DNA of 64,000 bases from Escherichia coli 042 (GTDB lineage Bacteria; Pseudomonadota; Gammaproteobacteria; Enterobacterales; Enterobacteriaceae), in NCBI RefSeq assembly GCF_000027125.1, contig NC_017626.1; one strand, 5' to 3'. Made by a program: the position numbers. Each line of letters begins with the position of its first letter. The first letter of the stretch is position 1. Below are positions 47,101 through 50,100 of this stretch, in pieces.

Positions 47101-50100
47101 GTTCACGCATACTGTAGCCGCAAATTGGGCAGGCGAAATTAGCGGAGAACAGCAACTCTTCCGCTTTCGGGTCGTCCATATCCGCAACTACCGCGGTACC
47201 ACCGGAAAGCTCCAGCGCGGTTTCAAACGACTCTGCCAGACGTTGGGTGAGATCGTCACGCACCTTGAAGCGATCAACCACCACTTCAATGGTATGTTTC
47301 TTTTGCAGTTCCAGTTTCGGCGGATCGGAAAGATCGCAGACTTCGCCATCAATACGAGCACGGATGTAACCCTGGCTTGCCAGATTTTCCAGCGTTTTGG
47401 TGTGTTCGCCTTTGCGCTCTTTAATGATTGGCGCGAGCAGCATCAGGCGTTTACCTTCCGGCTGCGACAGCACGTTATCCACCATCTGGCTGACGGTTTG
47501 CGCCGCCAGCGGTACATCGTGGTCCGGGCAGCGCGGCTCACCGACGCGGGCGAACAACAAACGCAAATAGTCGTGGATTTCGGTGATTGTCCCCACCGTA
47601 GAACGCGGGTTATGAGACGTCGATTTCTGCTCAATCGAGATGGCAGGAGAAAGCCCCTCAATATGATCGACGTCCGGCTTTTCCATCAGTGACAGAAACT
47701 GCCGCGCGTAGGCGGAAAGGGATTCAACGTAACGGCGCTGCCCTTCGGCATATAAGGTGTCGAAAGCGAGCGAGGATTTGCCAGAACCCGAAAGCCCGGT
47801 CACGACAATGAGCTTGTCGCGGGGGATAACGAGGTTGATGTTTTTGAGATTATGGGTGCGGGCGCCCCGAACTTCGATCTTATCCATTCACCTTTCCCGG
47901 ATTAAACGCTTTTTTGCCCGGTGGCATGGTGCTACCGGCGATCACAAACGGTTAATTATGACACAAATTGACCTGAATGAATATACAGTATTGGAATGCA
48001 TTACCCGGAGTGTTGTGTAACAATGTCTGGCCAGGTTTGTTTCCCGGAACCGAGGTCACAACATAGTAAAAGCGCTATTGGTAATGGTACAATCGCGCGT
48101 TTACACTTATTCAGAACGATTTTTTTTCAGGAGACACGAACATGGCCAGCAGAGGCGTAAACAAGGTTATTCTCGTTGGTAATCTGGGTCAGGACCCGGA
48201 AGTACGCTACATGCCAAATGGTGGCGCAGTTGCCAACATTACGCTGGCTACTTCCGAATCCTGGCGTGACAAAGCGACCGGCGAGATGAAAGAGCAGACT
48301 GAATGGCACCGCGTTGTGCTGTTCGGCAAACTGGCAGAAGTAGCCAGCGAATATCTGCGTAAAGGTTCTCAGGTTTATATCGAAGGTCAGCTGCGTACCC
48401 GTAAATGGACCGATCAATCCGGTCAGGATCGCTACACCACTGAAGTGGTGGTGAACGTTGGCGGCACCATGCAGATGCTGGGTGGTCGTCAGGGTGGCGG
48501 CGCTCCGGCAGGTGGTAATATCGGTGGCGGTCAGCCACAGGGCGGTTGGGGTCAGCCTCAGCAGCCGCAGGGTGGCAATCAGTTCAGCGGCGGCGCGCAG
48601 TCTCGCCCGCAGCAGTCCGCTCCGGCAGCACCGTCTAACGAGCCGCCGATGGATTTTGATGACGATATTCCGTTCTGATTTGTCATTAAAACAATAGGTT
48701 ATATTGTTTTAAGGTGGATGATTAAAGCATCTGCCAGCCGTAAAAAAGAAGCCTCCGTTTTGGAGGCTTCTACATATCAAGTCAAAATCATTGGCCATTG
48801 TGGCGGTGTCTGATTCATCTCTTCTATCATCACCGACTCGATGTTGTGCCAGATGGCGGTGATATCCGCCATTGTGATGCCAAGCAACCCCATTGCGAAC
48901 CAGCAGGCAGAAACCACGCCCAGACCGCTGCTGATCACTGCAAGCCCGACATAATCAGACCGACGAAAACGGATGTTGAGTGTGCTGGCCAGAAACATCA
49001 TTACGGCACTAAGAAGTTGCCAGCGAAGAAGAACCACGCCAGTGGTGAGGGTAGCCATCAAACAATTCCTCTGAAAAGAGCCGATGCCTCGGACAGCGCG
49101 GCGTTGTTCACGGGAGGCGTGATACAATCTGGCTATCGCGGGGCTTGCAGAACACAAAAAAGAAACACTCTGTTTGTTTCATTAATTTTGTGAACTATAT
49201 CACAATTGATTGTTTGTTAGCCAGATTAGGCCGTGACTTTTATTGCCGTACAGATTATGTGTTTTTTCAGTGGCATTAAGGGGATATCTTCCCACCGCCT
49301 CTGCATTCCTGTAGGAAATTAGTTTTGAATATCAATGAATTATTTTTATTCAGGTGACGATTAAAAAGGTATCAATTTCAAATCAGGCAAAAGTGCTATT
49401 TATACCGTAAGATTTATCTAAAGACGTCGGTGCCCAGGGTTTTCACCTTGCAATGGCCGGGTATAAACAGGCAGGAAATTGATAGCAATGAGTCATCGTG
49501 CACGACACCAATTACTGGCGTTGCCGGGCATTATCTTTTTAGTTCTCTTTCCCATCATTCTGTCGCTATGGATTGCCTTCCTTTGGGCAAAATCAGAAGT
49601 GAATAGCCAGCTCCAAACTTTTGCTCAGCTGGCGCTGGATAAATCCGAGCTGGTCATTCGCCAGGCAGATTTAGTGAGCGATGCAGCAGAACGCTATCAG
49701 GGGCAAGTTTGCACTCCAGCCCATCAAAAGCGAATGTTGAATATTATTCGTGGCTATCTTTATATTAATGAATTGATCTATGCCCGTGATAACCATTTTT
49801 TATGCTCATCGCTGATAGCGCCTGTAAACGGCTATACGATTGCACCGGCCGATTATAAGCGTGAACCTAACGTTTCTATCTATTATTACCGCGATACGCC
49901 TTTTTTCTCTGGCTATAAAATGACCTATATGCAGCGGAGAAATTATGTGGCGGTTATCAACCCTCTCTTCTGGAGTGAAGTGATGTCCGATGATCCGACA
50001 TTGCAATGGGGTGTGTATGATACGGTGACAAAAACCTTTTTCTCGTTAAGCAACGAGGCCTCGGCAGCAACGTTTTCTCCGCTGATTCATTTGAATGATT

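Follow-up and report, generated by a model that had tools for sequence, protein, structure and literature searches.

A single LexA box between the divergent uvrA and ssb genes of Escherichia coli 042: a known arrangement, shared very unequally by its two neighbours

A 64,000-nucleotide stretch of Escherichia coli 042 (contig NC_017626.1 of RefSeq assembly GCF_000027125.1; "the window" below) contains uvrA and ssb, two divergently oriented genes separated by a spacer of 254 bp (47888..48141). Both were identified from their open reading frames (ORFs) and from protein family models, and the RefSeq annotation of identical DNA gives the flanking genes the same names. Direct reading of the window places within this spacer, at 47973..47988, the 16-bp core of a box for the SOS repressor LexA, CTGAATGAATATACAG / ctgaatgaatatacag. 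The features of the locus are listed here, one to a line.

45065..47887, minus strand: uvrA, excinuclease ABC subunit A; 940-aa ORF, NCBIfam NF001503 at 1628.6 bits (cutoff 1147), RefSeq annotation
47971..47990: full 20-bp LexA site ACCTGAATGAATATACAGTA, uvrA-strand reading TACTGTATATTCATTCAGGT; matrix scan
47973..47988: LexA box core, uvrA-strand reading CTGTATATTCATTCAG; direct reading, within the 17.4-bit matrix match
48129..48133, plus strand: AGGAG, the ribosome-binding site of ssb, with a T8 run before it at 48120..48127; CAGGAGA is invariant in a 15-genus alignment
48142..48678, plus strand: ssb, single-stranded DNA-binding protein; 178-aa ORF, NCBIfam NF006533 at 360.1 bits (cutoff 260), RefSeq annotation

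The core carries the inverted triplets CTG and CAG exactly 10 bp apart, as in other LexA boxes, and the cognate repressor is encoded in the same window. On the uvrA strand, TACTGTATATTCATTCAGGT is identical to the consensus TACTG(TA)5CAGTA at 15 of 20 positions. The half-site at 47981..47990 is perfect (TACTGTATAT), and that at 47971..47980 is degenerate, with CTGA for CTGT at a cost of 4.2 bits. We consider it very probable (roughly 0.96) that 47971..47990 serves the divergent uvrA-ssb pair of E. coli as its chromosomal SOS operator, and nothing that we found argues against its being a LexA operator. It is the K-12 uvrA/ssb SOS box itself and more than a mere relative of it; the box has been described before. 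The operator is primarily that of uvrA and is shared very unequally with ssb.

The bare pattern CTG-N10-CAG is not diagnostic of LexA boxes. The window contains it 26 times, where shuffled sequences give 12.4 ± 3.6, and because of these 26 matches its count was rejected as evidence. Since the bare motif is so unspecific, a symmetrised position weight matrix was built from 17 published LexA boxes (Table 4 of PMC3009722). This training set includes neither the uvrA/ssb box, which is absent from that table, nor the lexA box, which lies in the window. The best matches in the window, together with the gene and the operators of the repressor, are as follows.

31056..31075: lexA box 1, matrix rank 1, 19.2 bits
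31077..31096: lexA box 2, matrix rank 2, 18.2 bits
47971..47990: uvrA/ssb site, matrix rank 3, 17.37 bits
61990..62009: noise-level match, matrix rank 4, 11.8 bits
31056..31096: lexA-dinF operon, two LexA boxes in tandem with cores at 31058..31073 and at 31079..31094; the two best matrix scores in the window
31103..31711, plus strand: lexA, the repressor gene; 202-aa ORF, NCBIfam TIGR00498 at 289.5 bits (cutoff 110.95)

The 17.37 bits of the uvrA/ssb site fall inside the range spanned by the training boxes' own scores (13.1–28.5 bits) and 5.6 bits above the next match in the window. The maximum score in random 64-kb sequences averages 11.7 ± 2.3 bits; a match of at least 17.37 bits is found in just 2% of such sequences, and about 8e-5 would be expected per 254 bp. 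A simple matrix thus suffices to tell the three true LexA sites of the window apart from its 23 other CTG-N10-CAG matches. Within the uvrA-ssb spacer the scan found no second LexA site, the sole other positive score being 4.7 bits in an overlapping, shifted register. A search for perfect palindromes with up to three mismatches gave no match and missed the lexA boxes too, and so was too strict; the uvrA/ssb site escaped it because it has five mismatches. A heterology-like index computed from 18 sites came to 8.5–9.2, from a training set unlike that of Lewis 1994, so that the figure is not numerically comparable with the published heterology index (HI) of 6.98 for this box (PMC9505508).

A sequence-only reading of the window had placed one SOS box at 47973-47988 in the 254-bp uvrA/ssb spacer, had called it single, had listed tandem boxes at 31058-31094 for lexA, and had named a LexA matrix scan and a comparison with K-12 as checks. 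The sequence and coordinates proved exact and agree with the ORFs and the NCBIfam models, the spacer holds no other site, the tandem cores lie directly upstream of the LexA ORF, and the scan put the box among published ones and not below them. The same reading had called the arrangement known, which is correct: it is published for E. coli (PMC9505508), Salmonella (PMC8072944) and Vibrionaceae (PMC3323433).

Two further candidates were rejected as LexA boxes. The fourth-ranked match, TACTGTCGTGAAAAACAATA at 61990..62009, lacks the CAG arm, and its 11.8 bits equal the maximum of random sequence; it lies 43 bp upstream of a 478-aa ORF that starts at 62052. A third CTG-N10-CAG near lexA, CTGGTTTATTGTGCAG at 31017..31032, scores 6.7 bits, which is noise level; it lies 25 bp upstream of lexA box 1 (41 bp from start to start).

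Comparison with K-12 MG1655 (NC_000913.3) shows the spacers to be the same but for one extra T in the window, in the T-run at 48120..48127. The core corresponds to NC_000913.3 4273957..4273972 and the 20-bp site to 4273955..4273974. The K-12 uvrA/ssb box (published HI 6.98) has the same flanking genes, orientation and distances, and apart from T7 in K-12 for T8 in the window nothing of substance differs. T8 seems to be a common E. coli allele of this run 5' of the ssb ribosome-binding site: O157:H7, Nissle 1917, ATCC 8739 and C match the window at 100% identity over 47800..48250.

The region was found in 5425 of 5426 complete E. coli genomes, annotated with uvrA and ssb everywhere, and the 451 bp around the site show at least 99% identity in 5421 records. 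The 40 bp around the box (47961..48000) are exact in 4683 genomes, and about 737 of 5420 records carry one mismatch there. In all three genomes sampled from this 737-genome band the mismatch was G47970A, one base outside the 20-bp LexA site; taken over the whole band, this puts the variant in about 14% of complete E. coli genomes. The 20-bp site itself was unchanged in each of the four variant E. coli genomes sampled.

Beyond the species, loci were retrieved from species-representative genomes with a degenerate DNA pattern for the conserved N-terminal peptide of SSB, which yielded 120 loci from many clades. Because retrieval relied on the ssb coding pattern, the selection of loci was independent of the box. 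At each locus ssb was located, a divergent uvrA was sought upstream by tblastn, and the intervening DNA was scanned with the same matrix. Fourteen comparison spacers of 224–533 bp, by our count from non-Escherichia Enterobacterales genera, separate a direct uvrA-ssb pair; they come from Citrobacter (two loci), Enterobacter-like genomes (two loci), E. albertii, Superficieibacter, Pseudocitrobacter, Klebsiella sp., Mangrovibacter, Rosenbergiella, Acerihabitans, Pectobacterium, Hafnia and Yersinia. All 14 have their best match (12.9–18.4 bits) at the position homologous to 47971..47990, and their next-best non-overlapping match never exceeds 6.1 bits. When the 15 spacers were aligned with MAFFT, the box was the most conserved 20-bp stretch of the spacer (0.93 against a mean of 0.67; rank 1-2 of 235 windows), with CTGAA..ATAT.CAG invariant. 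The degenerate half-site keeps CTGA, and never has CTGT, in 15 of 15 spacers despite diverging surroundings, and CTGA is found in Parashewanella too. This suggests that the weak half-site may itself be under constraint, either through tuning of affinity or through overlap with a promoter element.

The shared uvrA/ssb arrangement has been reported for E. coli, other gamma-proteobacteria and many Vibrionaceae (PMC3323433), and Salmonella has the same shared box with an HI of 6.99 (PMC8072944). The divergent pair of Salmonella enterica and of Vibrionaceae thus resembles that of E. coli in having one shared box (PMC8072944, PMC3323433), as do the 14 Enterobacterales comparison loci and Photobacterium. 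The boxes of Vibrionaceae differ in being nearer to the consensus (20.8–25.5 bits), and in several Vibrio an insert of about 2 kb leaves the box to serve uvrA only. Four Vibrio species (L022, L049, L075, L096) carry an insert of about 2 kb that parts uvrA from ssb. Here, a strong box (22–25 bits) remains 64–77 bp from the uvrA start, and no match of at least 12 bits was found within 400 bp of ssb. These four species differ from the split-pair Vibrionaceae that have been reported to keep a separate box for each gene (PMC3323433). The retrieval also returned second ssb-like loci in Citrobacter werkmanii, a Providencia plasmid, Enterobacter cloacae and Hafnia paralvei (L018, L027, L059, L106). 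They have no uvrA upstream, and no LexA-matrix match in the 300 bp before them exceeds about 5 bits. These are presumably plasmid or mobile-element paralogues of ssb.

A strict scan of the spacer for σ70 consensus promoters and terminators gave no match, and promoter hexamers were assigned by a relaxed scan plus conservation, as follows.

47955..47963, minus strand: predicted uvrA extended −10 TGTCATAAT; relaxed hexamer scan, inside the conserved block
47978..47983, minus strand: putative uvrA −35-like TATTCA (3/6), 17 bp upstream of CATAAT and inside the box
47968..47997, plus strand: candidate LexA-controlled distal ssb promoter, TTGACC (47968..47973), 18 bp, TGGAAT (47992..47997); read from the sequence
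48085..48093, plus strand: predicted extended −10 TGGTACAAT of a proximal, LexA-independent ssb promoter, start predicted near 48100

On this assignment uvrA transcription is predicted to start near 47948, which would put the box core at about −40 to −25. The position of TATTCA inside the box agrees with the published overlap of the box with the uvrA −35 (PMC9505508). In 14 of 15 spacers exactly 12 bp lie between the box and the uvrA −10 (ATTATG/CATAAT). The proximal ssb −10, by comparison, lies 64 to 98 bp from the box and the ssb ATG 117 to 261 bp, depending on the spacer; the fixed spacing on one side and the variable distances on the other therefore suggest that the box and the uvrA core promoter act as one unit. 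On the ssb side, the LexA box fills the 18-bp gap between TTGACC and TGGAAT, and it is plausible from their placement that these hexamers form the distal ssb promoter that LexA would occlude. They are kept only in an Escherichia/Citrobacter-like clade of the aligned spacers. The proximal ssb −10 has its TG.TA.AAT largely conserved across the aligned Enterobacterales spacers. The variant G47970A turns TTGACC, the candidate −35 of the distal promoter, into TTAACC, a hexamer that also occurs in Enterobacter sp. Bisph1 and Superficieibacter.

In the SOS response a LexA dimer occludes a promoter, and after damage RecA filaments on single-stranded DNA trigger self-cleavage of LexA, which frees the promoter. 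Applied to this locus, a LexA dimer, the product of lexA at 31103..31711, would in undamaged cells bind the imperfect palindrome at 47971..47990 and hinder binding of RNA polymerase, thereby holding uvrA at a basal level. Upon DNA damage, RecA-ssDNA filaments would stimulate LexA self-cleavage, the operator would empty and uvrA expression would rise a few-fold. The degeneracy of one half-site (published HI 6.98) is expected to make repression leaky and its relief early. Of the three ssb promoters, the same dimer would also cover the one farthest upstream. Those downstream of it, one of them with the extended −10 at 48085..48093, would stay uncovered, which would leave ssb constitutively high with only a modest LexA-dependent increment. 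In this scheme the sequence, score, uniqueness and conservation of the site and its spacing to the uvrA −10 were computed, LexA dependence and the number of ssb promoters are taken from the literature, and we infer the hexamers and start sites.

The published record is clear for uvrA and divided for ssb. The sequence ACTGTATATTCATTCAGG was recovered upstream of a UV-induced uvrA transcript (PMC3009722, Table 7; UV, ultraviolet). Physical binding of LexA to the box is described in earlier primary work, as cited in PMC9505508. By RNA-seq after azidothymidine (AZT), uvrA was induced 3.9-fold with a 4.4-fold dependence on lexA (lexA3), and ssb was induced 1.5-fold with a lexA dependence of 1.0-fold (PMC11228462, Table 1). 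Three ssb promoters have been described, of which only the most distal is LexA-repressible (PMC9505508). The effect of the operator on ssb is small and debated. The sequence-only reading had held that one operator can influence both promoters. This stands clearly for uvrA and, in assays by reverse-transcription quantitative PCR (RT-qPCR) and with green fluorescent protein (GFP), modestly for ssb, but the influence is very unequal.

How far ssb belongs to the operator at all is where the main alternative arises, namely that in function the box belongs to uvrA alone, that it lies near ssb just because the two genes diverge, and that LexA has no physiologically relevant effect on ssb transcription. 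Several points weigh in this direction and thus against a shared operator with a meaningful effect on ssb. These are the 1.0-fold lexA dependence of ssb beside 4.4-fold for uvrA; several older protein and microarray studies that saw no ssb induction (summarised in PMC9505508); the rigid 12-bp spacing to the uvrA −10 with variable spacing to the ssb elements; the candidate distal ssb hexamers, which are not conserved outside the Escherichia/Citrobacter-like clade and, since the strict promoter scan was empty, rest on relaxed criteria and conservation; and the box that stays with uvrA in the four split-pair Vibrio. Against it, RT-qPCR recorded a LexA-dependent rise in ssb after UV and gamma irradiation and over-expression in an SOS-constitutive mutant (PMC9505508), a fusion of the ssb promoter to GFP was UV-responsive and was classed among early SOS promoters (PMC5999292), Salmonella ssb appears at 9.63 in a table of nalidixic acid-upregulated loci (PMC8072944), and separate boxes for both genes are reported in some split-pair Vibrionaceae. 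We therefore regard the denial of any relevant ssb effect as unlikely, although well short of negligible, and prefer an operator that serves uvrA strongly and ssb weakly.

A related evolutionary reading draws on the fixed 12-bp uvrA spacing, the CTGA of 15 of 15 spacers and the clade restriction of TTGACC-18-TGGAAT. Here, the site would be an ancient, rigid operator of uvrA, to which LexA control of ssb was added later in one lineage. We put this forward tentatively, as a possible but rather unlikely history.

It is also conceivable that the conserved block is mainly the site of another regulator, for example ArcA, or the uvrA promoter itself, and merely resembles a LexA box. The box does overlap the putative uvrA −35, so that constraint on the promoter could account for some of its conservation, and the legend to Figure 1 of PMC9505508 places an ArcA site in the spacer. 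However, the invariant positions are the CTG and CAG that LexA contacts, at their 10-bp separation and with an AT-rich centre, a pattern that is not what a σ70 −35 requires, and LexA dependence of uvrA expression is published (PMC11228462). This makes the explanation highly improbable. That the site is a CTG-N10-CAG without regulatory function, arisen by chance in AT-rich spacer DNA, an idea that could draw on the 26 occurrences of the pattern in the window (about 12 even in shuffles) and on the failed 3-mismatch palindrome search, is refuted by the matrix score (17.4 bits against a null maximum of 11.7 ± 2.3) and by conservation across genera (a homologous position in 14 of 14, in the most conserved block of the spacer), and is further opposed by the invariance of the 20-bp site in the four sampled E. 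coli variants, the 40 bp exact in 4683 genomes and the published experimental record (PMC9505508, PMC11228462, PMC3009722).

Two kinds of SOS operator can be set beside that of uvrA and ssb. The tandem boxes of lexA-dinF are bound by the same repressor and share the CTG-N10-CAG architecture and a similar score (19.2 and 18.2 bits, against 17.4). They differ in being two adjacent operators that autoregulate one unidirectional operon, whereas uvrA/ssb has a single operator between divergent genes. The high-affinity single operators of umuDC, sbmC, recN (box 1) and sulA likewise act by promoter occlusion, but at 22–28 bits they repress tightly and are induced late or strongly. The uvrA/ssb operator, by contrast, is weak, early and of low amplitude, with one degenerate half-site.

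Elsewhere in the window, no tRNA gene was found in the 64 kb, and the following RNA features passed the Rfam gathering threshold.

9402..9598, minus strand: lysine riboswitch
11493..11641, minus strand: STnc430
19175..19245, plus strand, and four in tandem at 59321..59664, plus strand: naRNA4 (repetitive extragenic palindromic (REP)-type repeat), five copies
51943..52083, minus strand: sraL small RNA

The value of these results lies in correct annotation, and they advance no open question; only the comparative points are mildly new, namely that the box and the uvrA −10 are coupled at a fixed 12 bp, that the weak half-site is conserved, that the candidate distal ssb promoter is restricted to one clade, and that the G47970A allele in its putative −35 is common. 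If the distal promoter is assigned correctly, G47970A could make the SOS inducibility of ssb strain-dependent, and this might explain part of the contradictory literature. For E. coli, the site brings nucleotide-excision repair (uvrA) into the SOS response, and ssb marginally so, so that one repressor site serves two divergent genes with very different outcomes.

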